This document shows, piece after piece, positions 1,377 to 43,826 of a stretch of DNA of 63,381 nt. A model generated the notes under the pieces. The model was not told where the DNA came from. It did not search any database and saw only the letters and a program-made list of their open reading frames with translations. This DNA is from Patescibacteria group bacterium (GTDB lineage: Bacteria > Patescibacteriota > UBA1384 > JBAYJO01). Numbering within the stretch: the first letter of the stretch is position 1; every line of letters starts with the position of its first letter. The position numbers and the translations under genes were made by a program. The stretch covers positions 1-63,381 of the forward strand of contig JBAYJO010000005.1 of NCBI GenBank assembly GCA_041665085.1. Reading direction: 5' to 3'.

Positions 1377-2986
<1,610 letters not shown>

Positions 2987-3102
2987 AAAGAGAATACTTT
3001 CTTTGAAAGTCAGTCCGATCCTTTAGGGGATCGAGGCAGGTCGGTCGGCATTTTTAAATGCTGATTACATAGCAGTCGGAACAACTATAGGTAGATTAGA
3101 CA

Positions 3103-3129
3103 AAATCGCCTGTTTAGGCGATTTTTTTG
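3103..3129 (+). terminator. Intrinsic terminator after the 16S transcription unit
   Basis: The hairpin aaatcgcc-tgttt-aggcgattt is followed by a T run, directly after the 3' half of the 16S processing stem. Confidence 0.6.
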
Positions 3130-3170
3130 TACTAATAATTTTTAATATTAATTATTTATATATAATTTTT

Positions 3171-3357
3171 GTAAGGGACAGAGGGCTCCTTTTCGATGGC
3201 CGCCCTCTATCCCTTACCAACCCAACTCCTGCCACGACTTTTTCATAAGCATAAAAAAATACTTATTTCCTAAAAGACACTCTGATGACCTATCCTGTTT
3301 CACAGGCAGGCACAGTTTCTTTTGGAGCATAAGTATTTTTTTACTTTCTGAAAAAGG
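3171..3357 (+). repeat. Composite hairpin element, copy 1 (module A hairpin, linker, module B roughly 130-nt hairpin)
   Basis: Module A is gtaagggacagagggc...gccctctatcccttac. Module B is ctttttcataagcataaaaaaatacttat...ataagtatttttttactttctgaaaaagg. The copy is almost identical to 31855-32020 and homologous to 51005-51192 and 17048-17247. Confidence 0.8.
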
Positions 3358-3367
3358 TTTACATTTG

Positions 3368-3395
3368 TTGACTTTGAGGGGTTTGTAACTATTAT
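3368..3395 (+). promoter_or_regulatory. Sigma70-like promoter for the GC-rich ORF 3432-3800
   Basis: TTGACT, a 16-nt spacer and TATTAT. The spacer carries GGGGTTTG, as at 32073-32099 and (minus strand) 24136-24164. Confidence 0.4.
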
Positions 3396-3431
3396 AAAAA
3401 GGTAGGATTTGATTAATAGGGGTAGCTGCAA

Positions 3432-3800
3432 ATGATCAAGGAAGGGATTGTTTGTATTCTTGTGAAGGGTCCTGACGCGAGAGAAGTTGAGCGAGCCAGA
3501 CTAGTTCCAGAGTGTCCCGAATGTAGTCTGCTCGATTTTCATGTAATCTCTCCAGAGCATGGGTTTGTGGAGAAATGGCATGTCAGGGCACATGAAGTGA
3601 GAGTTGATGCAAGCTCGCAAACGATTGTCGGATTGATGGTAAGAGATGCTCCGTATTTGCCGGAAGATCGACCTGAAGGTTGGAAACCGACTACCTACAT
3701 AGCTATCTTTACAAGATACGGAGTTGAGCTGGAATATTATCTTGATAAGAAACAGCTCAAAATAACGAAGTGTGTGAAAATACCGCTATTGAGCGAATAA
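3432..3800 (+). CDS. Hypothetical protein (GC-rich orphan islet 1)
   Basis: A 122-aa ORF, clearly more GC-rich than its neighbours. It has a promoter-like site upstream and a GC hairpin downstream (aaagcgtatgca-ttgcatgcgcttt). I recognise no family. Confidence 0.5.
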   Translation: MIKEGIVCILVKGPDAREVERARLVPECPECSLLDFHVISPEHGFVEKWHVRAHEVRVDASSQTIVGLMVRDAPYLPEDRPEGWKPTTYIAIFTRYGVELEYYLDKKQLKITKCVKIPLLSE

Positions 3801-3953
3801 GGGGGCAGATCTCTAGCAGTTTGAGAAGGGGGTGACTAAAGCGTATGCATTGCATGCGCTTTCACCTATGTAGACTACTTTATGTATTGAATTAAGAAGT
3901 TATTTTTGTTATAATCTATTTGTTATGAATATTTTTAATCGAGGCTTGATGAA

Positions 3954-4030
<77 letters not shown>

Positions 4031-4046
4031 TTAAATCTTGATAGCA

Positions 4047-4174
4047 AGAGCGCGCGCTTCTCTGATGTCGATCCGCCAAGGCGGACGACGTAAAAAAATT
4101 GATAATGGAAACTATTAGATGCAATTTTTTTAGAAGGAAGAGGTCACTGATTCTTCGTTAAGTAAGTACCACCA
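4047..4174 (+). pseudogene. Degenerate second tRNA-Ile copy with a roughly 67-nt insertion in the anticodon loop
   Basis: agagcgc(gcg)cttctctgat, then an insertion at 4067-4133, then aaggaagaggtcactgattc...gtaccacca. This repeats tRNA-Ile positions about 20-76. The 5' acceptor/D arm and a proper T loop are missing. Confidence 0.5.
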
Positions 4175-4238
4175 AAAGATTTTAAAAAGACCGATATGAC
4201 TTTATAAACTTTTAACTTTACGAACTTTATAAACTATC

Positions 4239-4745
4239 ATGACAGCAACCTCACATTTATTAATCGGTTCTGCTCTTGGAGCCGCCACTGGAAATTCATA
4301 TGCGGCTTTTTTTGTAGGTGTGGCAAGTCATTTTGTTTGTGATCTCCTGCCTCATGTTGATGCAGCAATTGTGGATGAAAAAGGAGAATCTGAAGATATT
4401 ACAACAGATTTAGATCATTCATTTAAAGCATATCTTGTTGCTTCAATTGATATCCTTGTTGGATTAATAGTCACTGCTTTTTTTGTGTTTAGTTCCGAAA
4501 GTAATCTGATGTGGCCGATAATTTGGGGGGCTGTCGGTGGATTGAGCATTGATATTATAGATAATGTACCGTTTTGGAGTGGTTTTGTCAGAAAATTGCC
4601 TTTTTTTAGGTCTCTTCATAATTTTCACGAAGGTTTGCATTCTGTTGGCAAAAAATTTAAAAAAAATCATAAATCGTATGGAATGTGGTCTCAAATAATT
4701 TTAATTGCTTTAAGCCTCTTTTATTTATTGAATAAACTGGTATAA
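4239..4745 (+). CDS. Multi-pass membrane protein, possibly YdjM/DUF457-like metal-dependent hydrolase
   Basis: 168 aa. An N-terminal TSHLLIGSALG and HFVCDLLPHVD resemble the DUF457 His/Asp pattern, and there are several hydrophobic segments. A perfect 20-bp inverted repeat brackets the gene (4198-4217 / 4752-4771). Confidence 0.35.
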   Translation: MTATSHLLIGSALGAATGNSYAAFFVGVASHFVCDLLPHVDAAIVDEKGESEDITTDLDHSFKAYLVASIDILVGLIVTAFFVFSSESNLMWPIIWGAVGGLSIDIIDNVPFWSGFVRKLPFFRSLHNFHEGLHSVGKKFKKNHKSYGMWSQIILIALSLFYLLNKLV

Positions 4746-4853
4746 TTAAATAGTTAAAAGTTTATAAAGTCCGTAAAGTTAGAAAGTTAATTGAGTTTTA
4801 CTATCGTAATTATTACCAATAACTTTTGACTTTCAACTCAAGAAGGAGGGAAA

Positions 4854-5072
4854 ATGCCAAATATCGTGCTTCGAATATTAATCTTTATTGGTTGTTTTGC
4901 GGCCGGCCTTGGGCTGATTGCTAAAACACTCCCTTGGGTTAATTTAGTTGGCTATAGTTCGTGGGCAGAGCAGCATTTGGGAGGCGGCGGCACATACACA
5001 ATGTGGAAATTAATAGGTATTTTGTTAATAATTGCCGGAGTAATGGTTTTAGTTGGGACACTTCCGGTATAA
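4854..5072 (+). CDS. Small two-TM membrane protein
   Basis: 72 aa with a strong SD (aaggaggg) 5 nt upstream and two hydrophobic helices. Confidence 0.5.
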   Translation: MPNIVLRILIFIGCFAAGLGLIAKTLPWVNLVGYSSWAEQHLGGGGTYTMWKLIGILLIIAGVMVLVGTLPV

Positions 5073-5081
5073 TTATTTTAC

Positions 5082-5131
5082 GGGCCCGTAGCTCATCTGG
5101 TAGAGCGGTCGCCTAGGCGACAGGTGGCAGG
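5082..5131 (+). pseudogene. Truncated 5' copy of tRNA-Ala
   Basis: The first 26 nt (gggcccgtagctcatctggtagagcg) and aggtggcagg are identical to the intact tRNA-Ala at 5387. The anticodon arm is replaced by the palindrome gtcgcctaggcgac, and the copy is cut off in the T stem. Confidence 0.7.
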
Positions 5132-5144
5132 ATTAATTATTATT

Positions 5145-5396
5145 ATGTATTATGTTTATATATTAAGGAGTTTAGTAAACGATCGGTTGTATACAGGATC
5201 GACAAATAATCTATCCAGGCGTTTAGAAGAACATAATTCAGGAAAGAGTAAATATACGAAATTAACAGCACCTTTTCAGTTGATATATTCAGAAGAACAC
5301 AAAACCAGATCAGAGGCTTATAAAAGAGAACTGTTTTTAAAAAGTGGGAAAGGTAGGGAGTATCTTAAAAATTTACTGGTGGATCTGGGCCCGTAG
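5145..5396 (+). CDS. GIY-YIG nuclease family protein (COG2827/UPF0213-like)
   Basis: YVYILRS...RLYTGSTNNLSRRLEEHNSGKSKYTK...LIYSEEHKTRSEAYKRELFLKS matches the GIY...YIG...R...E...N pattern of small stand-alone GIY-YIG proteins. Its stop codon lies inside the tRNA-Ala 5' end. Confidence 0.85.
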   Translation: MYYVYILRSLVNDRLYTGSTNNLSRRLEEHNSGKSKYTKLTAPFQLIYSEEHKTRSEAYKRELFLKSGKGREYLKNLLVDLGP

Positions 5397-5462
5397 CTCA
5401 TCTGGTAGAGCGCCTGCTTTGCACGCAGGAGGTGGCAGGTTCGAGTCCTGTCGGGTCCACCA
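5387..5462 (+). tRNA. tRNA-Ala (anticodon TGC), CCA encoded
   Basis: Acceptor GGGCCCG/CGGGTCC with the G3:U70 identity pair, anticodon stem CCTGC/GCAGG with loop TTTGCAC, and T arm GCAGG-TTCGAGT-CCTGT. Confidence 0.9.
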
Positions 5463-5587
5463 GTAAATTTTTAAGAAAATAAAGACTAATCTGAAGATTA
5501 GTCTTTTGCCTTTTGACCAAAGTATCAGTATGATATTATTCAAACAATAAAGAGATGTCCCGGGCTGCGCCCGGGACTAGTTTTGCC

Positions 5588-6355
5588 TTACAAGATTCCC
5601 AATACTTTCCTCTTGACAAACAAGGCTTTGAGTATTGTGGAAACGGCGCTTGTAAGCTCATCTCGGTTTTCGTCGTTTAGCACAACGACATAGTCTGCCA
5701 TATGCAGGAGTGATTCTGCCTGTGCGAGGTGGTAGTCGATTTTCTGGCTAAGTATATCCATCTCGCTTCCGCGCTTAGCATACCATTGTGCCAATACCGA
5801 TGGATCGGACGGTATCATGAAGATTGTGGTCGGCATGCCGACCACAGGGCTGCGCGAGTTTTCGAAGGACAGCCTGCATAGCAGATAAGACAGCGTGTCT
5901 AGCCCGACTCCTGTACAAATCCAATATGCATCTTCTGCATCTGCTTGTGCTATTGCCTCGTGAAAAGCGGCCTTATGAAAACCATAGTAATGGCCGTTCA
6001 CAGGCGCTTGGAAAAAGAAGATCAGATTTTTTCTCGTGAATACGGGGTCTTCGAATTGCTCTTTTGAGAGGAAAATCATATCTCCATCGTTCATCCGCGG
6101 AAGCACCAGCCCGTTCACTTCACCTTCGCGTTTCGGGCGGCTGGTAGCAATCGGCAAATGTCGGGTTAACTTTTTCGCGATCGTTGTCTTTCCGATCGAT
6201 GGAGGTCCGGCCAACACAGCCACTCTGTTCATATTCCTCAACTCGAAAGAATTGAGTGGACTGAATCGTGTATCGACAAGAGATACCCAGTCACTCGGCG
6301 TTCCTTCAAACCCAAGCGGCCTTATCTGTTCAAACGGATCTTTGTCCATCTTCAT
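5588..6355 (-). CDS. Guanylate kinase family protein (GC-rich islet 2), with an N-terminal extension
   Basis: P-loop LAGPPSIGKTT. SRPKREGEVNG...FLSKEQFE...NGHYYGF parallels Gmk TTRxPRxGExxGxxYxFVxxxxF...GNYYGT, and VVLNDE parallels IVNDD. The start is taken at the ATG preceded by aggaga (6355); the track start is 6385. Confidence 0.6.
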   Translation of the reverse strand: MKMDKDPFEQIRPLGFEGTPSDWVSLVDTRFSPLNSFELRNMNRVAVLAGPPSIGKTTIAKKLTRHLPIATSRPKREGEVNGLVLPRMNDGDMIFLSKEQFEDPVFTRKNLIFFFQAPVNGHYYGFHKAAFHEAIAQADAEDAYWICTGVGLDTLSYLLCRLSFENSRSPVVGMPTTIFMIPSDPSVLAQWYAKRGSEMDILSQKIDYHLAQAESLLHMADYVVVLNDENRDELTSAVSTILKALFVKRKVLGIL

Positions 6356-6549
6356 TCTCCTGGTGCAAAAATTGGTATTGTCCAATCAATTGTATTGACT
6401 GAACCTCACCAAGTTTCCACTAGCTTTTTAAGTTTTAAAAAAGTGGCTATATTATAGTGTAATTTGTTTAAAAATGCAATTCTTTTGATGCGTTTTTAGT
6501 TTGATGTAATATCATTGCATTTGTAAGATGTTTTAATATTTAAATAGAA

Positions 6550-7284
6550 CTATTTGATAATATCTGTTGTTTCAATTAGTTTATAATAAGTTTCAAGATC
6601 GGTTGTATAATTTGTTTCATTGGTTTCAAGACTATATTCAAGAAGATCGCCTTTTTTCTGCAATATTTGGCAGTAAAGGACTAAATTTGTTGCTTGTTTA
6701 GTCTGCCAACAGCGAGATTCTTTTGCATTATTAAAATTTTTATTAATCATGCGATCAAAATCAGGTTTTTTAGTTATTACTTCTTGAAATTTCTTTTGGT
6801 TCGCATCAGAGAAAATATTATCTTCTGTAACAATAATCGTACCATTGATATATCTGACCCCAGTAAATTGAGAATCTCCCGTAATTTTGCCGGATGCGAT
6901 ATTTGTTGCTAATTTTTTGTCATTTTCTGATGCAAATACAAATATTGGTGTGCCTGTTCCGGAAGGGAAGAATGGTTCGCTGACCCAGCCTGCAGTAAGC
7001 GAAAAGGCAATATAATCTTTATTATTTTTTTGAATAATAATGCTTTGATATTTTGTAATGTCCGCGCTTGTTTGAGCTTGATCAGTAGCAGTATTTTTTG
7101 TTTTTTTAAGATCTTGAAGTTTTAATATTGAAAAAACTATCAATCCAAGGCATAATAACGCAGTGAAAATTAGACTAATAAAAAATATTCTTCTTTTTAA
7201 TTCTTCAACATAAATCTTTTTACTAAGAGATGATTTATTTTGGATTGGTGGATTATTTTGATTATTTAAAGGATTAAAATCCAA
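6550..7284 (-). CDS. Membrane-anchored hypothetical protein
   Basis: 244 aa with a TTG start behind taaggaggg and a single N-terminal TM (FFISLIFTALLCLGLIVFSIL). The composition is AT-rich, like the native genes. Confidence 0.5.
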   Translation of the reverse strand: MDFNPLNNQNNPPIQNKSSLSKKIYVEELKRRIFFISLIFTALLCLGLIVFSILKLQDLKKTKNTATDQAQTSADITKYQSIIIQKNNKDYIAFSLTAGWVSEPFFPSGTGTPIFVFASENDKKLATNIASGKITGDSQFTGVRYINGTIIVTEDNIFSDANQKKFQEVITKKPDFDRMINKNFNNAKESRCWQTKQATNLVLYCQILQKKGDLLEYSLETNETNYTTDLETYYKLIETTDIIK

Positions 7285-7430
7285 TTTCCCTCCTTAAATA
7301 GTTAAAAGTTAATAAAGTTAATAAAGTTTATAAAGTTCGTAAAGTTAAATAGATTGCTTCGCTTTGCTCGCAATGACATGGAAAGGGTCTGCAATGACAG
7401 AGTGGTCAAAGGTCTTTTAGCTTTATAAAC

Positions 7431-7970
7431 TTACTCCAAACAACAATCAACTGTTTTTTTGACAAGCGTACCGAGTTTTTTCATTAAGCCTGTTTTTTCT
7501 TTATCGTTTTTATTTATTTGATTATCATCTATTTTTTTAATATTTTTCGTGTCAATTACATTCATGTTTAAACCCCAAAACAATGAATAGAGGTTGTATG
7601 CTTTTTCAAAATATTCTTTTGCGTCATCTTTATTTCCTCGATCATATGCTTTGGTTCCGACTTCCATCAGCCTCATTGATGCGGCAAGCAAATGTTTTGA
7701 AATGCACCAAACTTCACCTTCAGGATCTTTAACAATTTTTTTAAGCAAATCTTTTCTGATTGATCTGGTTTCATTAAGAAGTTTGAAATATTCGCTATTT
7801 TCAGTTTTTGCACCTGTAAAGAAGAAATGTTCTTCAATTGAAATTAAATTCATAATTGCAATTGAAAGATCTTCATCTGAAGAAAGATCGAGTTTGTTTT
7901 TAGTTGTGTTAGCTTTTGCTAATAATTCTTGAATTTTTTTTTCTGTGTTCATTTTATCTTTTGGTAACAT
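7431..7970 (-). CDS. Hypothetical protein
   Basis: A 179-aa helical/charged protein whose start overlaps the stop of the upstream gene (an alternative start is M7 at 7952). I recognise no family. Confidence 0.45.
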   Translation of the reverse strand: MLPKDKMNTEKKIQELLAKANTTKNKLDLSSDEDLSIAIMNLISIEEHFFFTGAKTENSEYFKLLNETRSIRKDLLKKIVKDPEGEVWCISKHLLAASMRLMEVGTKAYDRGNKDDAKEYFEKAYNLYSLFWGLNMNVIDTKNIKKIDDNQINKNDKEKTGLMKKLGTLVKKTVDCCLE

Positions 7971-8475
7971 AATAAAATATTAAGCTAGCTATAATTATGA
8001 GAGATACAGGTATAATGGTTTTTTGAAAAGGAAAATATACTTTGTTATTATTTTTTGCTCGCAGATAGTTATGAAAATAATAAGAGATAATAATAATAAT
8101 ACTGCCGATTGTTATACTTAAGGTGAGTTTATCCATGCCCCAAATTTTATTAAATCCTTTTCCGATGAAATGATAAAGGTAAAGTGGAATTAGAATCGAT
8201 AAATAATAAAATAACAATACAAATATTTTTCTAAACATGAATTTAATTGATTTTTTATCTAACCAATTCACGGTCCAGATGACCATTGACATTGTGAGAG
8301 CGCCTATCCACAGACCGCTGACTGTATCGTCAATATGGTAATATTCTGAAATTCCAAGTCCGGCAACTAAGGTGACAGAACAAACCGGACAAAAGGCTAA
8401 TGCTTTTGCTGGAATAGTTATTATTAAAAACGAAATAACTGAATAAAATATGGTTTTTTTGTCTATTTTTCTCAT
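7954..8475 (-). CDS. Multi-pass membrane protein
   Basis: 173 aa with four to five hydrophobic segments and a CPVC motif. It forms an operon with 7431-7970. Confidence 0.5.
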   Translation of the reverse strand: MRKIDKKTIFYSVISFLIITIPAKALAFCPVCSVTLVAGLGISEYYHIDDTVSGLWIGALTMSMVIWTVNWLDKKSIKFMFRKIFVLLFYYLSILIPLYLYHFIGKGFNKIWGMDKLTLSITIGSIIIIISYYFHNYLRAKNNNKVYFPFQKTIIPVSLIIIASLIFYYVTKR

Positions 8476-8630
8476 TACTTTGTGATTATTATGTGATACA
8501 AATTTATTAAACCATAAATATAGTTTTATTCAAAGTTATTGACTCTACTTTAGGGTGTAGTATATTTGAATCAGAGGATAAGCGATATGCTTGGGTCGAT
8601 ATTCTTAGAAATAGATTTATAGGAGGATTT

Positions 8631-9314
8631 ATGACAACTTCATTTAGTGATTGGGTAGATGCTTTTTCGACTTCCATGAGCAATATGATGGATCGTATAA
8701 TAAATTTTGTTCCTAATGCTTTCGGCGCTTTTTTGCTTATTCTTGTTGGTTGGATTATCGGAATTATCTTAGGAAAAATAGTTGAAAAACTATTAAAACT
8801 TATCGGTATTCAGACTCTTTCCGAAAAAGCCAAAATCGAGGATTTGATTAAAAGAGCTGAAATTAAGATGAGCTTAAGTGAACTTTTAGGTTCGTTTGTT
8901 AAGTGGGTAGTATTAATTGTTGCATTTGTTTCAGCTGCTGATATTCTTCAGCTTCCGCAAATTTCCGAGTTTCTGAACAAAATTCTTGCTTATATTCCAA
9001 ATGTTGCTGCTGCAATCGGAATTATTTTAATTGGTGCGGTTGCTGCACATTTCTTGTCCAATGTTGTTTCCGCAACAGTTAAGGCAATGAATATTGGTTT
9101 TGATAACTTTGCAGTTGCTGTAACAAAATGGTCGGTTTGGATTTTTTCGATTCTTGCAGCCATGTATCAGCTTCAAATTGCTTCAGGACTTATTCAAACC
9201 CTATTTATGGGAATTGTTGCTTTGATCGCAATTTCAGGTGGACTTGCCTTTGGTCTTGGTGGACAAGATGCGGCAAAAGATATTCTTAGTAAGATCAAAA
9301 AACAGATTCAATAG
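8631..9314 (+). CDS. Multi-pass membrane protein (possibly a 'conserved TM helix' / MscS-related family)
   Basis: 227 aa with an SD (aggagg) and repeated long hydrophobic helices separated by K/E-rich linkers. The family assignment is tentative. Confidence 0.35.
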   Translation: MTTSFSDWVDAFSTSMSNMMDRIINFVPNAFGAFLLILVGWIIGIILGKIVEKLLKLIGIQTLSEKAKIEDLIKRAEIKMSLSELLGSFVKWVVLIVAFVSAADILQLPQISEFLNKILAYIPNVAAAIGIILIGAVAAHFLSNVVSATVKAMNIGFDNFAVAVTKWSVWIFSILAAMYQLQIASGLIQTLFMGIVALIAISGGLAFGLGGQDAAKDILSKIKKQIQ

Positions 9315-9489
9315 AAATAAACATCGAGAATTTTCAATGGAAAATAGCACTTAAAGTATATTTTTAGTGCTATTTTCGGTCCGAATTTGTAGAGTTGATA
9401 TTTTGTTGATCTTTTATACTATTGACATGCTTGACAAGGTTTAGTAGTAATGATAATATTATTTATGGATTAAGGAGGTCAATAAATTA

Positions 9490-9558
9490 ATGAGAATTAT
9501 TCCAAATATTTTAGTTTTTTCTCGAGCGATCACTACAAGAGAGGGGGTTAGCGGCTAG
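9490..9558 (+). CDS. Candidate 22-aa leader/micro-ORF upstream of the 23S rRNA
   Basis: taaggaggt lies 9 nt before an ATG, and the product is MRIIPNILVFSRAITTREGVSG*. It sits downstream of TTGACA-like boxes (9422-9436) and is followed by the hairpin tccgct-acaa-gcgga plus a T run (about 9588-9612). Confidence 0.25.
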   Translation: MRIIPNILVFSRAITTREGVSG

Positions 9559-9901
9559 TTTAAATTAAGTAATTAATCTTAATTTTCGTCCGCTACAAGC
9601 GGATTTTTTTAAATAATTGGTTTACTGACATGATTGACTAATCAATTTGTTAGTAAGTCAACTAGCATTTTAATAACAGAATCGTCCTATTTATATGCAA
9701 AATTAGATAGGATTCCGCAAAAATTTTTGTGTTTTTGCGGTTGCAATGTTAAAAGTTACTCAAGAGCATATGGTGGATGCCTTGACCATTTGAGCCGATG
9801 AAGGACGTAGTAGCCTGCGAAAAGTTACGGGTAGGTGGCAAACAACCTGTGATCCGTAAATTTCCGAATGGGGTAACCCGGCGTGGCAAACCCACGTCAA
9901 C

Positions 9902-10039
9902 CGTGCTCTGCACGAAATTCTTAATTTAAAATTTAAAATTTAAATTGAATTTAAAATTTTTAAATGTTTTAAACATTTGATCATTAGAAATTTATTGAAA
10001 ATTAAAAATTGAAAATTGAAAATTCCGCGCAGCGCGCGG
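9902..10039 (+). repeat. IVS-like insertion module in 23S domain I (helix 9/10 region)
   Basis: cgtgc-tct-gcacg, then an AT-rich hairpin (aatttaaaatttaaaat...gaaaattgaaaatt), then ccgcgc-agc-gcgcgg. It has the same three-part architecture as 1445-1605. The AT-rich core resembles 16728-16835. Confidence 0.7.
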
Positions 10040-10150
10040 TAGGGCACCCGCTGAACTGAAACATCTTAGTAAGCGGAGGAAAAGAAATCAGCAGAGATTC
10101 CCTAAGTAGTGGCGAGCGAAAAGGGAAGAGCCTAAACCTCACTAATTATC

Positions 10151-10311
10151 CGAAATTCCAATATAGTTAAAAAGTTCACAAAGTTCATAAAGTCCATAAA
10201 GTTCAAAGAATTAAATATTTTTAGTTTATATTCAAATTACTTTATATACTTTTTTACTTTCGACTTTATAAACTAAAGCATCGAGCGATAGCGAGATGTG
10301 TTGGGATTTCG
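10151..10311 (+). repeat. 23S expansion hairpin 1, built from phased AAAGT/ACTTT repeat arms
   Basis: Base stem cgaaattccaa / ttgggatttcg. The arms are agttaaaaagttcacaaagttcataaagtccataaagtt and tactttatatacttttttactttcgactttataaact, followed by aagcatcgagcgatagcgagat. Confidence 0.7.
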
Positions 10312-10360
10312 TATAGTTAGATGGGGGGTTTCGGATGACGCATTCTCGTGTCTCACTAGT

Positions 10361-10537
10361 GTTCGACACTTAAGTCAAAAGTTCTTAAAGTCTATAAAGT
10401 TTAAAAGTTAATGGAATTTACTATTATATAGTTTTTTCAACCAACTTTATAAACTTTCGACTTTTAACTTTATAAACTGAAGTATCGAGCGGTAGCGAGA
10501 TACGAGACAAAGTTACAAAATCAATTGCTAGTCGAAC
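10361..10537 (+). repeat. 23S expansion hairpin 2 (a tandem relative of 10151-10311)
   Basis: Base stem gttcgac / gtcgaac. The arms are agtcaaaagttcttaaagtctataaagtttaaaagtt and caactttataaactttcgacttttaactttataaact, followed by aagtatcgagcggtagcgagat. Confidence 0.7.
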
Positions 10538-11291
10538 GCTCCTGGAAAGGACGGCCATAGACGGTGACAGCCCGGTAGACGAAAGTGATTGAACTTTGAG
10601 CGTTATTCCAGAGTACTGTCGGACACGTGAAACCCGGCAGGAATTTGGGGTGATCATGCTCCAAGGCTAAATACTCAAATGGATCGATAGCGAACTAGTA
10701 CCGTAAGGGAAAGGTGAAAAGTACCCCGCTAAGGGGAGTGAAATAGTACCTGAAACCATATGCTTACAAGGAGTCGGAGCCCGCAAGGGTGACGGCGTGC
10801 CTTTTGGAGAATGAACCAACGAGTTTGTAGATAATGCGAGCTTAAGGCCTTGACGGCTGGAGGCGAAGCGAAAGCGAGTACGAATAGTGCATTTAGTATT
10901 ATTTACTAGACCCGAAACCGAGTGATCTATCCATGGTCAGGGTGAAGTCCGCCGGTAAGGCGGATGGAGGCCCGAACCCACCTGTGATGCAAAACGGGGG
11001 GATGAACTGTGGATAGCGGAGAAATTCCAATCGAACTCGGAGATAGCTGGTTCTCCTCGAAATATATTTAGGTATAGCGTCTTGTGATGCGGTCCGGGGG
11101 TAGAGCACTGGATGGTGTTCGGCGGGGAAACCTGTTGACATCAATCAAACTCCGAATACCGGATTTGTTAGCAAGGCAGTCAGACTGTGGGGGATAAGCT
11201 CCATGGTCGAAAGGGAAACAGCCCAGACCGCCAGATAAGGTCCCAAAGTCTATGCTAAGTGGGAAAGGATGTGATAAACCACAAACAACTA

Positions 11292-11323
<32 letters not shown>

Positions 11324-11404
11324 GAAAGCGTAACAGCTCACTAGTCAAGGTTTATTGCGCCGAAGATTTAACGGGGCTCAAGCATAGCACCGAAGCTGCG
11401 GATG

Positions 11405-11566
11405 GCCGTGCACAGCACGGAAATTCCAATAATCAAGTAACAATAACCAAATAAATCACAAATTAAAAATTACAATATTCAATTTTTTTTGGATATTAAA
11501 TAATTGAAATTTGGTGATTGTTTGGGATTTGTATCTTGTAATTTGGATATTCCGTGTTGTACGCGG
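11405..11566 (+). repeat. IVS-like insertion module in 23S helix 45, near-identical to the 16S insertion
   Basis: It lies between caccgaagctgcgg and ggtagaggagcgttc, which is the helix-45 IVS site known from Salmonella, Leptospira and Coxiella. Long identical runs are shared with 1445-1605 (caagtaacaataa, caaataaatcacaaatt, aaaattacaatattcaa, atttgtatcttgtaatttgga). Confidence 0.8.
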
Positions 11567-12197
11567 TCATGGTAGAGGAGCGTTCTTGTTGCGATGAAGC
11601 CGAAGTGTAAACCGAGGTGGAGCGACAAGAAGTGAGAATGTTGGTATGAGTAACGAATTATCCTGACGAGAAATCAGGACACCGAATATCCAAGGTTTCC
11701 CCCGCAACGATAATCGACGGGGGGTTAGCCGGGCCTAACCCATTAAGTTGGGGATGGACAGCAGGTTGATATTCCTGCGCTTCTGTAGTTTTGTTTGATA
11801 AGACGCTCTGTGAAAAGCCTCGAAGAAAGTTGGTAGTTCGAGAGGTAGGACGCGGAGACTAGAAAATTTGAAAAACGTTAAGGCTACAGAACCCGTACCG
11901 CAAACCGACTCAGGTGGTTGAGGCGAGGAGCCTCAGGTGATCGAGAGAACCCTTGTTAAGGAACTCGGCAATAAAGCGTCCGTAACTTCGGGATAAGGAC
12001 TGCCCGCCTCATCGGCGGGCCGCAGCTAAAGAGTTCCAGGCGACTGTTTACCAAAAACTTAGGTCTATGCTAACCCATTTTGGGGATGTATATGGGCTGA
12101 TGCCTGCCCAGTGCTAGTAGGTTACGGGGAGGATTGATTCCGCTTTCGGGCGGATGAGGTTCGAACTTAAGCCCTAGTGAACGGCAGCAGTAACTAT

Positions 12198-12938
12198 GAA
12201 CAAGTTGTAGTTATAAAACTTGGCTATATGCTGGAACATCTCGTTTAGGTCTTTGGTAGGTTATATTTGATAAATATACCTAAAAATCCAAAGAATAGAG
12301 ACAATCAGCAGGAAAGACTCAATAAAAGGAGGTAAATGAGTAGTAATCAACTCATGATTCCAGACCACATAGGGTGGTATATTAGTGGATTTTGTGATGG
12401 CGAAGGTAGTTTTAATGTTTCGCTTCGCAGGAAAACTGATTATAAAATAGGATGGCAAGTGGTGTTAAGTTTTAATGTATCTCAAAGAGATATTACAATG
12501 CTTGCACTTATAAAACGCTATCTGAAATGTGGGATCATAAAGAAAAGACAGGATGGATTATATTCTTATGATGTAACTAATCCAAATGCAATAACAAATA
12601 CAATCATTCCGTTTTTCGAAAAGTTTCGCTTTTTTTCTGCTTCAAAGAAGTATAATTTTAGACTTTTTGAGCAGATAACTAAGCTTGTGGCTGACAAAAA
12701 ACATCTTTCGCCGGAAGGATTTCAGGAAATAATGATTTTAAGAGAGAAATTGAATCCCGGGAGAGGTAGAACAAGAAAGTATAATATTGCAGATGTCTTA
12801 ATAAATTGAGTATCCTCAGAGACTACACGCCAAGACCCGATAATTTATCGGGTATGATATAGTCCGACCTCTATGGAGACATAGAGAGCATGATAGAAAT
12901 ATTTATGCCCTTGATTGATTATCAAGGCAACAAATGTG
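12198..12938 (+). mobile_element. Group I intron A at the E. coli-equivalent site after U1917 (H69 loop)
   Basis: The 5' exon ends ..gtaactat and the 3' exon resumes aactgttctatggt. The internal guide GTAGTT (12207-12212) pairs with exon AACTAT through a G.U. Core elements are ggctatatgctggaa, acaatcagcaggaaag and gatatagtccgacc. The terminal nucleotide is G at 12938. Confidence 0.8.
12336..12809 (+). CDS. LAGLIDADG homing endonuclease (single-motif, I-CreI-size) encoded in intron A
   Basis: 157 aa with the motif YISGFCDGEGSFNV and an SD (aaaggagg) upstream. It lies entirely inside intron A. Confidence 0.85.
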   Translation: MSSNQLMIPDHIGWYISGFCDGEGSFNVSLRRKTDYKIGWQVVLSFNVSQRDITMLALIKRYLKCGIIKKRQDGLYSYDVTNPNAITNTIIPFFEKFRFFSASKKYNFRLFEQITKLVADKKHLSPEGFQEIMILREKLNPGRGRTRKYNIADVLIN

Positions 12939-12952
12939 AACTGTTCTATGGT

Positions 12953-13251
12953 AGGAAAGCTGCCTTAGTGAGGTAGTCAAACCTCTGCTCGAACTTTCTG
13001 TGCCAGGAAAGATGTAGAGTAAAAATTCGACTATATGCTGGAAACTCTCTAGAATTCCAACGGGAAACCGGTTGGGCTGTGGAGACAATCAGCAGGGAAG
13101 TCCGCCTAGGTGGATCCCTCAACGACTATACGTCGAATGCCTATAAAAAATTCTGAAAATGATAATAGGTAAAGATATAGTCTGATCTGCATGGCGATAT
13201 GCAGAGTTTATTTTGGGAACAAATAAACCATCGAAAGATGTAACAAAATTA
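12953..13251 (+). mobile_element. ORF-less group I intron B at the site after U1931 (boundaries +/-2 nt)
   Basis: The 5' exon ends ..ctatggt. The guide GCCTTAG (about 12960-12966) pairs with it. Core elements are cgactatatgctggaa, acaatcagcagggaagtcc, cctcaacgactatacg and agatatagtctg. The 3' exon resumes agcgaaattcc. Confidence 0.7.
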
Positions 13252-13271
13252 AGCGAAATTCCTTGTCGGGT

Positions 13272-13973
13272 AAATAACGGAATTTGCCCGAGTAGTGCCG
13301 TGAGGTGCTATTAGTACACTGGCTAATAACGGGGAAACCCCTTTGGGGCAATCCCGTGGGAAGTCGGTCGCCATTTGGCGACTTGACCCCGTAACGACTG
13401 ACTCGAAAGATGAGATTCGATAATATCGAATAATACGCCAGCTCTTACTGAAAAAAGTGTGCTATGAAGTTCTAGAAAGGAGAATGTGGATATACATTCT
13501 TATATGACTGGTTTAACTGAAGGTGAAGGTTGCTTCTGTATTTCCTTTACTCAACGCAAAAAGTTGAATACTGGAATTGAAGTTAGACCTAGTTTTTCAA
13601 TCAGTCAGAATGAAAAGAATCTAGAATTGTTAAAAAGAGTTCGACAATGTTTTGACTGTGGTGGAATACGCTACTCAAGTCAAGATAGGAATTACAAATT
13701 CGAAGTGAGAAGTATTGATGATTTGATAAAAATTATCATTCCTCATTTTGAAAAATATCCTTTGATTGGAGCAAAAGCAGTGGATTTTGAAAAATTTGCT
13801 CAAATTTGCTGGATGATGAGATCAAATCTTCATCGCAACAAAGAAGGATTAATCAAAATAATTGATTTGGCTTATCAAATCAATTATGGAAAAAGAAAAT
13901 ATTCTAAAGAAGAACTTCTAAGGCATATGGTAAGATGAAAAGATAGTCTAAAGCATTGGCAACAATGTAAATG
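13272..13973 (+). mobile_element. Group I intron C at the site after U1951
   Basis: The 5' exon ends ..cttgtcgggt and the guide is GCCCGA (about 13286). Core elements are tgaccccgtaacgactgactcgaaag and aagatagtc. The terminal G is at 13973 and the 3' exon resumes aagttccgaccc. Confidence 0.8.
13486..13938 (+). CDS. LAGLIDADG homing endonuclease (single-motif) encoded in intron C
   Basis: 150 aa with the motif YMTGLTEGEGCFCISF and an SD (aaaggag) upstream. It uses a GTG start. Confidence 0.85.
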   Translation: MDIHSYMTGLTEGEGCFCISFTQRKKLNTGIEVRPSFSISQNEKNLELLKRVRQCFDCGGIRYSSQDRNYKFEVRSIDDLIKIIIPHFEKYPLIGAKAVDFEKFAQICWMMRSNLHRNKEGLIKIIDLAYQINYGKRKYSKEELLRHMVR

Positions 13974-14249
13974 AAGTTCCGACCCGCACGAATGGCATAA
14001 CGGTCTGGAAACTGTCTCAACAAGGGGCTCGGTGAAATTACAATGCCGGTAAAGATGCCGGCTACCCGCAGCAAGACGAGAAGACCCCGTGGAGCTTTAC
14101 TACAATCTGATATTGGGTTTTAAAATAACATGTGTAGGCTAGGTGGGAGTTTAGACGAAAGGTGAAATACCACCCTTGTTATTTTAGGACCCTAACACTC
14201 AATGCGAGTGGACAGTGTCTGGTGGGTAGTTTGACTGGGGCGGTCGCCT

Positions 14250-15212
14250 TAATATTAGCTTTCTTCGTTAAGCTATAGGGGCGTCTTGGCTATATGCTGG
14301 AATACCCGGTGTATGGTATAATACTCATAGAACATTAGTTCTAAAGTAAAAATTTATACCTGCGGTATAACCTATTTGGTATATACCACCGGACAATCAG
14401 CAGGGAAGTCCGCAAAAGCGGACCCCTCAACGACTATACGCCAAGCTTTGTATCAAATATAAAAGCAAATTGTCCCAATTGATACAGGGAAGATATAGTC
14501 TGAACTACATGGCGACATGTAGATCTTTGATCAATTATTACAAGATCAAAGAATTCAAGAAAAATAATTCTATGTATAGTAAAAAAATTGAAACATACAA
14601 GCAAAAACTTAAATTAACTTCTCAACAACGAGAGATATTAGTTGGTTTGTTACTTGGTGATGGTCATCTTGAAACGCAAAACAACGGCTTAACCTATCGA
14701 TTGAAAATAGAACATGGTGCTATACAAAAGGATTATGTTGATTGGCTTTATGAAATCTATAAGGATTGGGTATTAACTCCTCCACAGATAAAACAAAAGA
14801 AAACTGGTGAAATCATAACAGAAAATGTTTGGTTCAATACAGTTAGTCATATTGCAATGCGCTATTATGGCAAGCAGTTTTATCAGAAAGGAAAAAAAAT
14901 ATTACCTAAGTATATTAGTAGATTATTAAAACCATTGACCCTTGCGATTTGGTTTATGGATGACGGCTCATTAAAGTCGAAAGACCATCGAGCTTTAATT
15001 CTAAACACACAAGGATTTATCATCAAAGAGATTGAAATGTTGCAGAAAGGGCTAAAAGAAAAATATTCTATTGAAGCCCAACAGAGAAATCAAAAAGATG
15101 GTATCCAGCTTTTGATGGTTGGAGAATCGGCAAAAGAGTTTGCGCGAATTATTTCGCCATATTTATTGCCACAATTCAACTACAAACTTGGAAAATTGAA
15201 TTAACAAAATTG
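14250..15212 (+). mobile_element. Group I intron D just 3' of the P-loop (about E. coli position 2262)
   Basis: The 5' exon ends ..ggggcggtcgcct and the guide is GGGCG (about 14275). Core elements are ggctatatgctggaa, acaatcagcagggaagtcc, cctcaacgactatacg and agatatagtctg. The terminal G is at 15212 and the 3' exon resumes cctaaaatgtaacggagg. Confidence 0.8.
14572..15204 (+). CDS. Double-motif LAGLIDADG homing endonuclease encoded in intron D
   Basis: Motifs LLLGDGHLE and WFMDDGSLK. The start is taken at the first ATG after the ribozyme P7/P9 segment; the track start at 14470 would run through core RNA. Confidence 0.8.
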   Translation: MYSKKIETYKQKLKLTSQQREILVGLLLGDGHLETQNNGLTYRLKIEHGAIQKDYVDWLYEIYKDWVLTPPQIKQKKTGEIITENVWFNTVSHIAMRYYGKQFYQKGKKILPKYISRLLKPLTLAIWFMDDGSLKSKDHRALILNTQGFIIKEIEMLQKGLKEKYSIEAQQRNQKDGIQLLMVGESAKEFARIISPYLLPQFNYKLGKLN

Positions 15213-15370
15213 CCTAAAATGTAACGGAGGCGTTCAAAGGTCAGCTAACTACGTATGGAAATCGTAGTGATAGTGCAAACGCATAAGCTGGCTTGACTGC
15301 AAGACCTACAAGTCGAGCAGGTGCGAAAGCAGGAGTTAGTGAACCTGTGCCACTGAATGATGGGGGCACA

Positions 15371-15407
<37 letters not shown>

Positions 15408-15450
15408 TATAGCGCCCAATAGTCCATATAGACGGCGCTGTTTGGCACCT

Positions 15451-16320
15451 TAACACATTGGGGTGCTGCAGAAGTAATTCTGCACCAACAATTTGGCTTA
15501 TAACGGTGAACTCCGACTGCTAGTTTATCCACAAGACCGTTCGTATTATGTTCGGTATAATATAAGTGATATAAATTAGTAAAGGACAATACCGTGGGAA
15601 GTCTATCGTCAACTCAACACGCAATCTTAGTTGGAAGTATGTTAGGAGATGGAACACTTCGACGACAAGATAATCGATTGAACGCATTGTTTGAAGTAAA
15701 TCATTCATATGCTTTTAAAGATTATGTCGATTGGAAGTGTGAACAGATGAAAGAATATGTAATAACCTCTCCTAAATCAAGAAAAGGTAAAGGAATGCGT
15801 GTTGCTTATCGTTTTACGACTCGAAGTTTGCCAATTTTTACAGACTATTATAAATGGTTCTATAAAAATGGGAGAAAACAAATTCCATTAAATCTTGAAC
15901 TTGATCCGCAAATTCTTGCGGTATGGTTCATGGATGATGGAAGCAAGAGTCGTAGTGCTTACTATCTTAATACCCAACAGTTTTCTCTCTGTGAACAAAA
16001 GATTCTGCAGATGAAATTAGAGAAAGACATGGGAATTAAGTCTACTCTTAATCGTGATAAAAAATATTTGCGGTTAAGAATTAGCACAGAAAGTGCAAAA
16101 TATATGACTTTAATTGTTGAAAAATATATTTTACCTTGTTTTCGATATAAGTTGACATATGACCCCGTAACGACTGACCCGAAAGGGAAGATTCTGACAT
16201 TAGGTCAGGATAACACGCCAACCCCTATTACAAAAAACTCAATGATATGGTTTTAAAAACCTAAATCAGAGAATAGGGTGAAGATATAGTCTGCACCATA
16301 CGAAATTATGGATTCATGTA
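15451..16320 (+). mobile_element. Group I intron E in the peptidyl-transferase centre (after U2500)
   Basis: The 5' exon ends ..tttggcacct and the guide is GGGTGC (about 15462). Core elements are tgaccccgtaacgactgacccgaaag and aagatatagtctgc. The 3' exon resumes cgatgtcggctcg. Confidence 0.75.
15594..16256 (+). CDS. Double-motif LAGLIDADG homing endonuclease encoded in intron E
   Basis: 220 aa with motifs GSMLGDGTL and WFMDDGSKS and a GTG start. The C-terminal roughly 30 codons overlap conserved ribozyme core sequence. Confidence 0.8.
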   Translation: MGSLSSTQHAILVGSMLGDGTLRRQDNRLNALFEVNHSYAFKDYVDWKCEQMKEYVITSPKSRKGKGMRVAYRFTTRSLPIFTDYYKWFYKNGRKQIPLNLELDPQILAVWFMDDGSKSRSAYYLNTQQFSLCEQKILQMKLEKDMGIKSTLNRDKKYLRLRISTESAKYMTLIVEKYILPCFRYKLTYDPVTTDPKGKILTLGQDNTPTPITKNSMIWF

Positions 16321-16727
16321 CGATGTCGGCTCGTCGTATCCTGGAGCGGTAGTACGTTCCAAGGGTTTGGCTGTTCGCCAATTAAAACGGCACGCGAGCT
16401 GGGTTCAGAACGTCGCGAGACAGTTCGGTCTTAATCTGCTGTGGGCGTTTCGAAGTTTGAAGAGGGTTCCCTTCTAGTACGAGAGGACCGAAGGGAGCGA
16501 ACCTATAGTGTATCGGTTGTCCTGCCAAGGGCATTGCCGAGTAGCTACGTTCGATATGATAACCGCTGAAGGCATATAAGCGGGAAGCTTGCCTCAAGAT
16601 TAAACTTCGTCATTAGACTGGTTGTAGACCACGACCTTGATAGGCTCTAGGTGTAAGCGCAGTAATGTGTTCAGCCAAGGAGTACTAATAGTCGAACAAC
16701 TTTTAACATTGCAACTACATAAAGCAT

Positions 16728-17007: not shown

Positions 17008-17047
17008 ATAATAATTTTTATTATTAATATTTTTATAATCAATTTAT

Positions 17048-17247
17048 GTAAGGGGCTAGGGGCTTCAAGTCTTGAAGCGCGCTCCCTTTGCCCTTTACAA
17101 ACCCCCACCCCCGCACGCTTTTTCTGGGGCACTCAAAAATAGATTCCTTTCTACAAAAAGATGAATTCGTCCGTCAGCTGGCGGACTTCACCCTTCGGGA
17201 AGCACTTTTTGTATAAGCAGAATATATTTTTGAGTTTCCCGAAAAAA
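17048..17247 (+). repeat. Composite hairpin element, copy 4 (divergent)
   Basis: It has the same two-hairpin layout: gtaaggggctagggg...ctccctttgccctttac, a C-rich linker, and then ctttttctggggcactcaaaaatagattc paired with gaatatatttttgagtttcccgaaaaaa. TTGACT-16-TATAAT follows at 17259-17286. Confidence 0.55.
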
Positions 17248-30444: not shown

Positions 30445-31824
30445 ATGTCTGCAAAAAATATGGAAAATGTTGTTAACTTAGCTAAAAGACGAGGTTTTGT
30501 TTATCCATCAAGCGAAATTTATGGAGGGCTTGGAAGTGTATATGATTATGGACCATTAGGTGTTCAGATGCTAAGAAATATTCGTGATCTTTGGTGGCAA
30601 CATTTTATTATTGAGAAAGAAGATGTTATTGGGATAGAGAGTCAGATTTTTATGCATCCACAAACTTGGGTATCGAGTGGACATGTGGGAGGTTTTTCTG
30701 ATCCATTAATAGAATGTAAAAAATGTCATAATCGTTTTAGGGCTGATCATTTAATTAATGATTTGGATAAAAATATCGAGACAGATGGTATGGATAAAAA
30801 AGAAATGAAAGCGGTTTTGGATAAACTAAGTGCTAAATGCCCGGTTTGCAAAAGCTTAAGTTGGGATGAAATAAAAGATTTTAATACAATGTTTAAGACT
30901 AGCCTTGGTGCTACGGAAGATAATTCAAGCGTGCTTTATTTAAGGCCTGAAACTGCACAAGGTATGTTTGTACTTTTTAAAAATATTTTAAGTTCCACAA
31001 GATTAAAGGTTCCGTTTGGGGTTGCGCAGCAAGGTAAAGCTTTTAGAAATGAAATAACAACTGGTAAATTTATTTTTCGCACATTAGAATTTGAACAAAT
31101 GGAATTACAATATTTTATTAAAGAATCAGATTGGCAGAATCAATTTGAGAGATGGAGAAAAGAGATTGAGGTTTGGTATACAGAAATTTTAGGTCTTGAT
31201 AAGAAAAAATTTCTTTGGAAGCCTCATAAAAAGTTAGCTCATTATGCAAAAGCAGCTGAAGATTATACTTATGAATTTAGCTGGGGTTTTGATGAGGTGA
31301 GCGGTTTACATTACAGAACTGATTTCGATTTAAAAACTCATCAAAAAAATTCAGGAAGCGATATGGCATATCTTGATCCTCTGACAGGTGAGAAATTTAT
31401 CCCACATGATATTGAATCAACTTGGGGATTAAATAGGAATTTATTAATGCTTTTGGAAGATGCATATGATGAATCTGACGGGCAAGATGGGCGAGCGGTA
31501 GGAGAAATTACTTTGCATCTAAATCCGAAAGTCGCGCCAGTAAAAGTAGGAGTTTTTCCATTGGTGAAAAAAGAAAGATTACCTGAAATTGCTCAACAAA
31601 TTGTTTCTGGATTAACTAAAGAAGGAATCGCGTCTTTTTATGATGAATCGGGTTCGATTGGGCGCAGATATAGAAGGCAAGACGAAATTGGCACTCCATA
31701 TTGTATTACAGTTGATTTTGATTCGCTTGAAGATAAGGCAATTACAATTAGAGATAGAGATACTTTAAAACAAGAGAGAATTAAGATTGATGAAATCGGT
31801 GAGTGGTTGAAGAATAAGATCTAA
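30445..31824 (+). CDS. glyQS: Glycine--tRNA ligase (dimeric class II type)
   Basis: AKRRGFVYPSSEIYGGLGSVYDYGPLG, LRPETAQG, FRNE and RTLEFEQMELQYF are the class II motifs of GlyQS. Confidence 0.9.
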   Translation: MSAKNMENVVNLAKRRGFVYPSSEIYGGLGSVYDYGPLGVQMLRNIRDLWWQHFIIEKEDVIGIESQIFMHPQTWVSSGHVGGFSDPLIECKKCHNRFRADHLINDLDKNIETDGMDKKEMKAVLDKLSAKCPVCKSLSWDEIKDFNTMFKTSLGATEDNSSVLYLRPETAQGMFVLFKNILSSTRLKVPFGVAQQGKAFRNEITTGKFIFRTLEFEQMELQYFIKESDWQNQFERWRKEIEVWYTEILGLDKKKFLWKPHKKLAHYAKAAEDYTYEFSWGFDEVSGLHYRTDFDLKTHQKNSGSDMAYLDPLTGEKFIPHDIESTWGLNRNLLMLLEDAYDESDGQDGRAVGEITLHLNPKVAPVKVGVFPLVKKERLPEIAQQIVSGLTKEGIASFYDESGSIGRRYRRQDEIGTPYCITVDFDSLEDKAITIRDRDTLKQERIKIDEIGEWLKNKI

Positions 31825-31854: not shown

Positions 31855-32020
31855 GTAAGGGACAGAGGGCTCCTTTTCGACCTGCCTCGCCGGCAGGCAG
31901 GCTTTTTCATAAGCATAAAAAAATACTTATTTCCTAAAAGACACTCTGATGACCTATCCTGTTTCACAGGCAGGCACAGTTTCTTTTGGAGCATAAGTAT
32001 TTTTTTACTTTCTGAAAAAG
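31855..32020 (+). repeat. Composite hairpin element, copy 2
   Basis: Module B is identical or nearly so to 3240-3357. The right arm of module A is replaced by the small palindrome cctgcctcgccggcaggcagg (31881-31902). Confidence 0.8.
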
Positions 32021-32154
32021 ATTTTGAGGTGAGAAATTCCATACTTTATGAACTTTTAACTTTATGAACTTTTTGACTTGAAAGGGGTTGATTTATAACC
32101 CTTTTTTTGGTATGTTCTATGTGCTTGAGGATTTTACGCTTGGAGGTAGGGCGA

Positions 32155-32586: not shown

Positions 32587-32687
32587 GACTAGGGTCGTGG
32601 TGGATCTATTCACCACGACCTTTCGCGTTGCCTTGAGTATTGACAGGATTGACACATCTGTTGCAAAAAGAGATAATAGAAATATCT

Positions 32688-32723
32688 GTGGAAAAAAGTG
32701 GGGAAAATTGTCAAATATAGTGG
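32688..32723 (+). promoter_or_regulatory. Candidate MraZ operator: phased GTGG repeats upstream of mraZ
   Basis: GTGGaaaaaa GTGGggaaaatt GTcaaatata GTGGaaaac, with GTGG at 32688, 32698 and 32720 and a degenerate unit at about 32709 (a 10-11-nt phase). MraZ is known to bind GTGG(G) direct repeats at about 10-bp spacing. Confidence 0.45.
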
Positions 32724-32831
32724 AAAACTGGCAATTAGTTCACTATAAGTAGTAAGAATATAAAAATTAATAAGTTTTAAGTTTTAAATTATGATTTTGA
32801 ACTTTAAACTTTAAATTATAAGTTGAATATT

Positions 32832-43797: not shown

Positions 43798-43826
43798 TTT
43801 TTAAAGGAAATGTCTAGTGTTAGTAT

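Follow-up and report, generated by a model that had tools for sequence, protein, structure and literature searches.

A ~190-nt interspersed palindromic repeat family in a groundwater Patescibacteria genome, probably of the non-autonomous mobile kind

Does a composite hairpin that recurs between the genes of an uncultivated bacterium represent a structured RNA or a piece of mobile DNA? The question is raised by a stretch of 63,381 nucleotides (hereafter the window), in which an initial annotation had listed four copies of a two-hairpin element and described them as a candidate structured RNA or MITE family. The host is an AT-rich, uncultivated groundwater bacterium of the Patescibacteria (window GC, 36%): the runs that contain the window sequence are groundwater metagenomes, and for both TyrRS and GlyRS, the best-matching relatives that carry a name are Patescibacteria, named after the Magasanikbacteria type (~65% identity). 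Reports of expanding non-coding repeats are rare for the small, streamlined genomes of Patescibacteria (CPR); our full-text literature search returned no description of an expanding non-coding repeat in Patescibacteria.

The window carries a 16S gene, a 23S gene with group I introns and LAGLIDADG ORFs, a 5S gene, and genes for tRNA-Ile and tRNA-Ala, which lie 1.4 kb apart with protein genes in between. The 16S–23S spacer measures 6.8 kb (2985–9763) and bears protein genes on both strands, and a terminator is found directly 3' of 16S (3102–3125). The 23S gene is 6.9 kb long (9764–16695) and includes two group I introns recognized by Rfam (12936–13204 and 14222–14522) together with four LAGLIDADG endonuclease ORFs (12336–12809, 13486–13938, 14470–15204, and 15594–16256), suggesting that the insertions in 23S outnumber the two recognized introns. 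An insertion of ~160 nt occurs within both 16S (1445–1606) and 23S (11405–11567) with a mutual identity of 84–86%, and a third, partial copy lies in 23S (9959–10040). It consists of an AT-rich hairpin flanked by GC clamps (GCCGTGCGTAGCACGG ... CCGCGCTATGCGCGG) and looks like a shared or mobile intervening sequence.

All four copies of the composite element are present where they had been located (Table 1). Three of them (c1–c3) are clear homologues and the fourth (c4) is a diverged member. In c1, a GC-rich hairpin of 47 nt (GTAAGGGACAGAGGGC...GCCCTCTATCCCTTAC) is followed by an unpaired, C-rich linker of 20 nt and by an AT-rich long hairpin of 119 nt closed by CTTTTTCA/TGAAAAAG. The layout of GC hairpin, C-rich linker, and long hairpin that had been ascribed to every copy holds for c1 and c3, but c2 has neither the linker nor the GC hairpin's 3' arm, these 41 nt having been swapped for a 21-nt GC mini-hairpin (CCTGCCTCGCCGGCAGGCAGG). 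Likewise, the ctttttca/tgaaaaag closure given for the long hairpin does not extend to c4, which is closed by cttttt.../...gaaaaa and differs in its apical part; what connects c4 with the family is its 5' hairpin and linker and, in the long hairpin, the basal part. By BLAST, c1 and c2 are 100% identical over the 119 nt of the long hairpin and over the first 26 nt, c3 shares 78–81% identity with c1/c2 on the same plan, and c4 is not recovered. The covariance-model search that had been proposed for the family was run with filters off, using a model trained on c1, c3, and two metagenome copies; it recovered c4 (67 bits, E ~1e-14) and detected no fifth copy in the window. Element size ranges from 166 to 200 nt across copies, a 17-nt motif of the 5' part occurs six times (both arms counted) against 0.6 expected, and the short ORFs inside the element are, by eye, not conserved between c1, c3, and c4.

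Table 1. Positions of the element copies, their parts, and associated intergenic modules (window coordinates unless a locus is named; bits are covariance-model scores).
Feature	Position	Strand	Context
c1	3171–3357	+	Between the post-16S terminator and a promoter-like site of ORF 3432; 226 bits
c1, GC hairpin	3171–3217	+	
c1, C-rich linker	3218–3237	+	
c1, long hairpin	3238–3356	+	
c1, AT-rich leader	3122–3170	+	BLAST matches from L057 and L059 reach 3122
c2	31855–32020	+	30 nt past the glyS stop codon; deletion/replacement variant; 144 bits
c2, first 26 nt of 5' hairpin	31855–31880	+	
c2, GC mini-hairpin	31881–31901	+	
c2, long hairpin	31902–32020	+	
c3	51005–51192	+	20 nt past the tyrS stop codon, convergent genes either side; 176 bits
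c3, GC hairpin	51006–51049	+	
c3, linker	51050–51071	+	
c3, long hairpin	51072–51191	+	
c4	17048–17247	+	Behind the 5S terminator; diverged member; 67 bits, outside the training set
c4, GC hairpin	17048–17098	+	
c4, C-rich linker	17099–17118	+	
c4, long hairpin	17119–17246	+	
L059 copy	5467–5653 (L059)	antisense to trpS	15 nt beyond the trpS stop codon, upstream of nrdR
L057 copy	302–488 (L057)	antisense to trxA-like gene	~20 nt beyond the stop codon of that gene
GC mini-hairpin CCTGCCTCGCCGGCAGGCGGG, second occurrence	43750–43773	+	Tip of a different long intergenic hairpin
Flanking module TTGACTT.GA..GGGGTT	3368–3383; 32073–32089	+	Downstream of c1 and c2 only (window); 2 matches against 0 expected
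AAAAAGGTAGGATTT	3396–3410	+	Same as the c3 3' junction (51186–51200); at c1, 40 nt past the junction

A pattern that c1 and c4 have in common located three more loci (L057, L058, and L059), all in one JGI metagenome, whose copies are 89–96% identical to c1. Because the flanks of L057 and L059 have window-like depth and show zero differences in two groundwater runs (X1, which matches Logan run SRR6484324, and X2), these two loci are assigned to the window's genome; an L058-type sequence is present in X2, and the L058 copy likely resides in the same genome as well. The known copies are intergenic: each follows closely on a terminator or lies 15–35 nt from a stop codon, and either orientation to the neighboring gene occurs. 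The rule that every copy faces the same way, 3' of a plus-strand unit, is therefore valid inside the window but not for the family, given the antisense copies beside trpS and trxA. The G-rich strand carries four copies and the C-rich strand at least two, those of L057 and L059, a comparison in which GC skew is confounded by the coding strand; with these two copies antisense, neither the orientation to the neighboring gene nor that to GC skew is fixed. The AT-rich leader of c1 resembles that of c4 (17008–17047, by eye), and depth is slightly raised from position 3142 onward; this leader may be a preferred target, or else the element may have a longer form that includes it. Downstream of c2 there is a terminator-like hairpin (~32082–32108). 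With this hairpin on one side of c2 and the stop codon of glyS on the other, c2 probably forms part of the glyS transcript.

We estimated copy number from the depth of Logan contigs of X1 and X2 on the loci. Unique flanks are covered 26–31x in X1 and ~4x in X2, and at c1 the X1 depth rises from 31x to 250–550x between ~3164 and 3355. Within the element, X1 depth is 420–680x at the 5' end, ~245x at the c1-type linker, 145–176x at the c2-specific junction (~5–6x the flank), and 190–545x over the long hairpin, with similar ratios in X2. From these depths in the two metagenomes, each genome equivalent carries roughly 20–26 copies, which fall into several sub-types. Of the c2-type deletion variant there are ~5–6 copies, and c4 in X1 combines a 5' module at 4–10x flank depth with a long hairpin that is single copy. 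The depth steps place the ends of the element near 3164–3170 and 3355–3358. Assemblies break inside the element, two of them at c2, a fragmentation that we attribute to the ~20-copy, 190-nt repeat family itself; contigs matching the window-edge proteins, which were used as probes for extending the genome, stop at the same places. The spread of the element is recent, because some copies are identical (c1 and c2, over 119 nt). Next to the selection on structure argued for at first ("not just recent duplication"), recent duplication is plainly evident too. In neither metagenome did we see insertion or excision polymorphism: every examined locus was occupied, and no joints appeared.

Orthologous loci in relatives lack the element. 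Downstream of tyrS, the window has a 265-nt spacer with c3, whereas L060 (TyrRS 80% identical, syntenic over 13 kb) has 10 nt followed by a convergent gene, and in L061 and L062 (77% and 70%) argS comes next. Downstream of glyS, a simple terminator follows in L074 (GlyRS 83%) and the next gene begins after 18 nt in L073 (80%). The covariance model found no copy in ~100 kb of relatives' DNA. A pattern for the apical hairpin gave 55 matches in GTDB representative genomes, all attributable to chance, and a first metagenome scan with a c1/c3 hairpin pattern gave 0 matches; viral contigs yielded 0 matches with one pattern and chance matches only with the other. Across the pattern scans, the element occurs in one JGI metagenome only. 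Given the empty orthologous sites and the absence of copies from the relatives' ~100 kb, these sequence comparisons indicate that the family is confined to a narrow lineage and that its insertions are younger than the splits from the compared relatives, the nearest of which share only 77–83% aaRS protein identity, so that the empty sites date the gain loosely. The organism of L060 (contig P0234) has a GlyRS just 55% identical to the product of window positions 30445–31824, and shorter (437 aa), despite a TyrRS identity of 80%, which hints at a replacement of glyS in one lineage or the other.

The copies are also mosaic. Other contigs combine the c4-type 5' module with a long hairpin of the standard form, and in at least three loci a partial (G)TAAGGGGCTAG plus 8–10 A/T-rich nt lies just 5' of a full copy. 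Stem variants are mixed as well, L059 combining the stems of c1 with the tip of L057, and L058 the 5' end of c1 with a c3-like tip. As read from these arrangements, copies exchange or lose modules. The position of AAAAAGGTAGGATTT at c1 (Table 1) suggests a further rearrangement, in that a 38-nt piece appears to have been inserted there between two AAAAAGG repeats; the TTGACTT.GA..GGGGTT module at c1 overlaps a sigma-70-like promoter match.

Several other features of the intergenic regions came to light. The ftsQ–recJ spacer (43708–43929) holds two further long hairpins and measures 222 nt here versus 10 nt in L060, which suggests that other hairpin insertions have enlarged intergenic regions of this genome. 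A 9-nt periodic motif (AAAGTTNAT), matched 27 times where 3.7 matches are expected, forms arrays at 32042–32079, 4198–4237, 4757–4797, 7305–7346, 10171–10480, and 33276–33290. Contigs matching the array beside c2 reach depths of ~7800 in X1 and ~3550 in X2, compared with 27 and ~4 for the flanks; the 9-nt motif is thus hugely abundant in these communities. Between c2 and mraZ, the stretch 32100–32650 has a GC content of 45–50%, as against 36% for the genome. A possible 122-aa ORF there (32218–32586) has no Pfam or Rfam match and an unremarkable fold (z = −1.55), Rfam at a permissive threshold returned nothing for the GC-rich interval 32020–32830, and L073 has a pilin-like gene in place of this stretch.

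Copy number, empty orthologous sites, and mosaicism together favor mobile DNA. Hence, of the original alternative between structured RNA and MITE, what stands is a genuine repeat family, best read as mobile; the plain MITE is not borne out, and the RNA is without specific support. We consider it reasonably probable that the element is a ~190-nt, lineage-specific, non-coding interspersed palindromic repeat that behaves as a non-autonomous mobile element of the MITE/REPIN/BIME/bcr1 kind. On that reading it is a new repeat family within a well-known type of small mobile DNA, rather than an RNA with a demonstrated function.

The folding evidence bears directly on the RNA alternative. The predicted RNA folds of all four copies match the described layout, with z-scores of −5.6 to −10.4 relative to shuffles, and in c1, c3, and c4 these folds leave the linker unpaired. 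The compensatory stem changes quoted initially are real, and further ones exist: 9 of 61 pairs are altered on both sides in a four-sequence alignment. In a seq­uence set enlarged to seven, 94.9% of cells are paired and 19 pairs show two-sided changes, compared with 7.3±1.9 in column shuffles and 1–5 in slid structures; this alignment is model-fitted and the sample small, which biases the numbers towards structure, although the sign of the effect is beyond question. Depending on the copy, one pair appears as C-G, G-C, or T-A (TCA[C/G/T]TTTC with GAAA[G/C/A]TGA), and internal loops and bulges are conserved while the pairs around them vary. From two-sided changes so far above the controls we infer that the hairpins are under constraint as folded single strands, in agreement with the proposal that covariation here points to selection on structure. 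An RNA function is not thereby singled out, because both strands and single-stranded DNA fold equally and REPIN and bcr1 repeats show the same changes. The minus strand folds as well as the plus-strand RNA, or slightly better, and single-stranded DNA folds too (z = −10). G:U pairs number 1–3 on the plus strand and 1–6 on the minus strand, and the difference in a G:U versus A:C strand test comes mostly from one shared position and the linker, making strand asymmetry unusable. Compensatory changes are common in REPIN hairpins (PMC3116915), and the two-hairpin fold of bcr1 is maintained through them (PMC3184786).

If the element were instead a functional structured RNA family, it would be either a multi-copy sRNA or a cis-acting 3'-end module that stabilizes or terminates housekeeping transcripts. 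An sRNA might pair with G-rich or Shine-Dalgarno sequences through its unpaired C-rich linker, which contains ACUCCU in both c1 and c3 and C-runs in c4. The strong covariation and conserved loops would fit such a role, as would the retention of the architecture by c4 despite heavy divergence, the unpaired state predicted for the linker, the short distance to stop codons, and the probable inclusion of c2 in the glyS transcript. What keeps the idea alive is that five of the seven copies with known neighbors follow rRNA or aaRS genes. We nevertheless regard an RNA function as unlikely. No copy matches Rfam at gathering thresholds, and at E ≤ 10 c1 and c4 give far-below-threshold noise only. The sequencing runs listed as containing the element include no RNA run. 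Neither hairpin is followed by a U-tract (CAACCC or GGTTTAC is found instead), a terminator scan picks up the 16S-trailer terminator at 3102–3125 and nothing within the element, and there is no convincing promoter upstream of the element; c1 and c4, moreover, lie behind intrinsic terminators. The varying orientation to the neighboring gene means that the transcribed sequence would differ between copies, the c2-type variant has multiplied without a linker, both strands fold equally, and the relatives' glyS and tyrS manage without the element. Known structured classes were rejected as well: an intrinsic terminator would require the U-tract, a T-box would lie 5' rather than 3' of aaRS genes, a retron msr/msd is incompatible with a multi-copy element and the lack of a reverse transcriptase, and an integron attC with the lack of an integrase and of a cassette array.

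The ends of the element bear on how it might move. In all seven copies, TTT(T/A)T stands directly 5' of the G of GTAAGGG or GCCAAAGG, possibly as part of the element itself. Taken whole, the unit lacks a terminal inverted repeat, its ends (...TTTTTGTAAGGG and CTGAAAAAG(R)T) sharing only a T-run/A-run, and the long inverted repeat is internal (3238–3356) rather than at the unit termini. Inspection by eye of the flanks of the seven copies revealed no consistent target-site duplication, one of 2–3 bp being possible given the AT-rich flanks. Target duplications combined with terminal inverted repeats had been named at the outset as the mark of a plain MITE; the copies show no such terminal repeat and no consistent duplication. 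Pfam searches detected no transposase or recombinase in the window, and none was found in ~20 kb more of the genome; reading the same 63 kb and ~20 kb likewise uncovered no master copy. Y1 (RAYT-like) proteins have 1053 homologues at E ≤ 1e-20, many of them labelled Patescibacteria, so REP/RAYT systems appear to be common in this phylum. Y1 genes in L061 (2230–3600), L075, L076, and L077 have short REPs on their flanks, of NNCACCCC(C)GGGGTGNN type; the REPs flanking these four genes of relatives are CACCCCGGGGGTG-type and unrelated to the element.

These ends invite a more specific form of the mobile explanation, in which the element is a derivative of IS200/IS605-type DNA (a PATE) or a REPIN: a Y1 HUH transposase would recognize its left-end and right-end hairpins on a single strand of the DNA and insert it 3' of a short T-rich target without duplication. 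Such an origin would explain why hairpins lie at both ends, why terminal inverted repeats and target duplications are missing, why a T-rich motif precedes seven of seven copies, and why the first 26 nt together with the 3' hairpin seem to be enough for spread; Y1 transposases accompanied by REPs are, in addition, widespread among Patescibacteria. We rate it as distinctly unlikely, since the window contains no Y1 gene, the four Y1 genes of relatives have different REPs, the T-run may be the element's own, the orientation to GC skew is inconsistent, and no IS605-related Rfam motif is matched.

Comparison with described families places the element among them without identifying it with any. Like the REPINs and REP-BIMEs of Pseudomonas and E. 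coli, which are mobilized by RAYTs, it is extragenic, over-represented, multi-copy, and non-coding, has GC-rich palindrome heads and long imperfect hairpins with compensatory changes (PMC3116915), shows a mosaic higher-order arrangement, and is often found at the 3' ends of genes. Unlike a REPIN, it is not a pair of inverted REPs in one hairpin: its GC hairpin, C-rich linker, and separate 120-nt AT-rich hairpin are composed of different sequences, no RAYT gene accompanied by these hairpins was found in the window, and the RAYT genes of relatives have unrelated REPs. The bcr1/group A repeats of the Bacillus cereus group are similar in length (~155–190 nt), in being interspersed at positions that are not conserved between relatives, in their compensated two-hairpin fold (PMC3184786), and in blending mobile-element with RNA-like features; bcr1 itself has 5-bp terminal direct repeats and is known to be transcribed, and there is no sequence similarity between it and the element. 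Its size (166–200 nt), lack of coding capacity, ~20–26 copies, and absence from orthologous sites of relatives agree with classical MITEs (Correia/NEMIS, RUP, ERIC, RPE), which are likewise small, non-coding, hairpin-forming, multi-copy, intergenic, and lineage-restricted, but its inverted repeat is internal, and neither a consistent target duplication nor a known parent insertion sequence accompanies it. IS200/IS605 PATEs, finally, share the hairpin at each end, the lack of terminal inverted repeats and target duplication, and a conserved short sequence directly 5' of the left end, although here that sequence may be the element's own; against this comparison, no TnpA or TnpB was found in the window, no IS605-associated RNA motif is matched, and orientation to GC skew is mixed.

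One feature of the distribution of copies among genes stands out. Five of the seven known copies are at the 3' ends of translation-apparatus genes (16S, 5S, glyS, tyrS, and trpS), which is unexpected under simple random insertion; within the window, copies sit at the only two aaRS genes and at each of the two ends of rRNA units, and at none of ~50 other genes. The genes 3' of the copies show no paralogy that would support a shared leader. The element may accordingly be a structured module at the 3' ends of translation-apparatus genes in this lineage rather than merely selfish DNA, an idea to which we give a slim chance. Such a module, an RNA or DNA hairpin working in either orientation, may serve, for example, as a terminator, a 3'-end protector, or a recognition site for a dedicated protein.

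Very improbable, in our view, is that the copies are non-mobile intergenic cassettes of terminator, promoter, and hairpin modules, spread and homogenized by ectopic recombination or gene conversion and with stems kept perfect by quasi-palindrome template switching: the mosaic architecture, the modules shared between flanks, the recombined stems of L058 and L059, and the many two-sided changes that are transversion flips, attainable in one step by a templated mechanism, are in its favor, but identical 119-nt copies at unrelated loci with unrelated flanks, in a family of ~20, require insertion at new sites, and conserved asymmetric loops and bulges oppose simple copying from arm to arm.

Under the non-autonomous mobile repeat that we prefer, the unit that is copied or selected would act as a folded single strand, as suggested by the two-sided substitutions in both hairpins and by the conserved internal loops and bulges. 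This strand would be a single-stranded DNA intermediate recognized by a trans-acting enzyme encoded elsewhere, of the HUH/Y1 type or another, and templated repair within the quasi-palindrome could contribute to the pattern of changes. The first 26 nt and the long hairpin seem to be enough for spread, since the c2-type variant, which has half of the 5' hairpin and no linker, has itself multiplied. Co-transcription with neighboring genes and effects on their 3' ends would then possibly be side effects of the element.

These results have implications beyond the locus. Strong compensatory covariation within a repeat does not argue for an RNA gene unless strand asymmetry or transcripts accompany it. 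Should the association with rRNA and aaRS 3' ends hold throughout the genome, either a targeting rule or a function would be indicated, and a true 3'-end module would constitute a new class of cis-element or a regulon marker in reduced genomes. For the organism itself, ~20 copies and spacers enlarged by hairpins from ~10 nt to >200 nt amount to active genome turnover in a Patescibacteria host.
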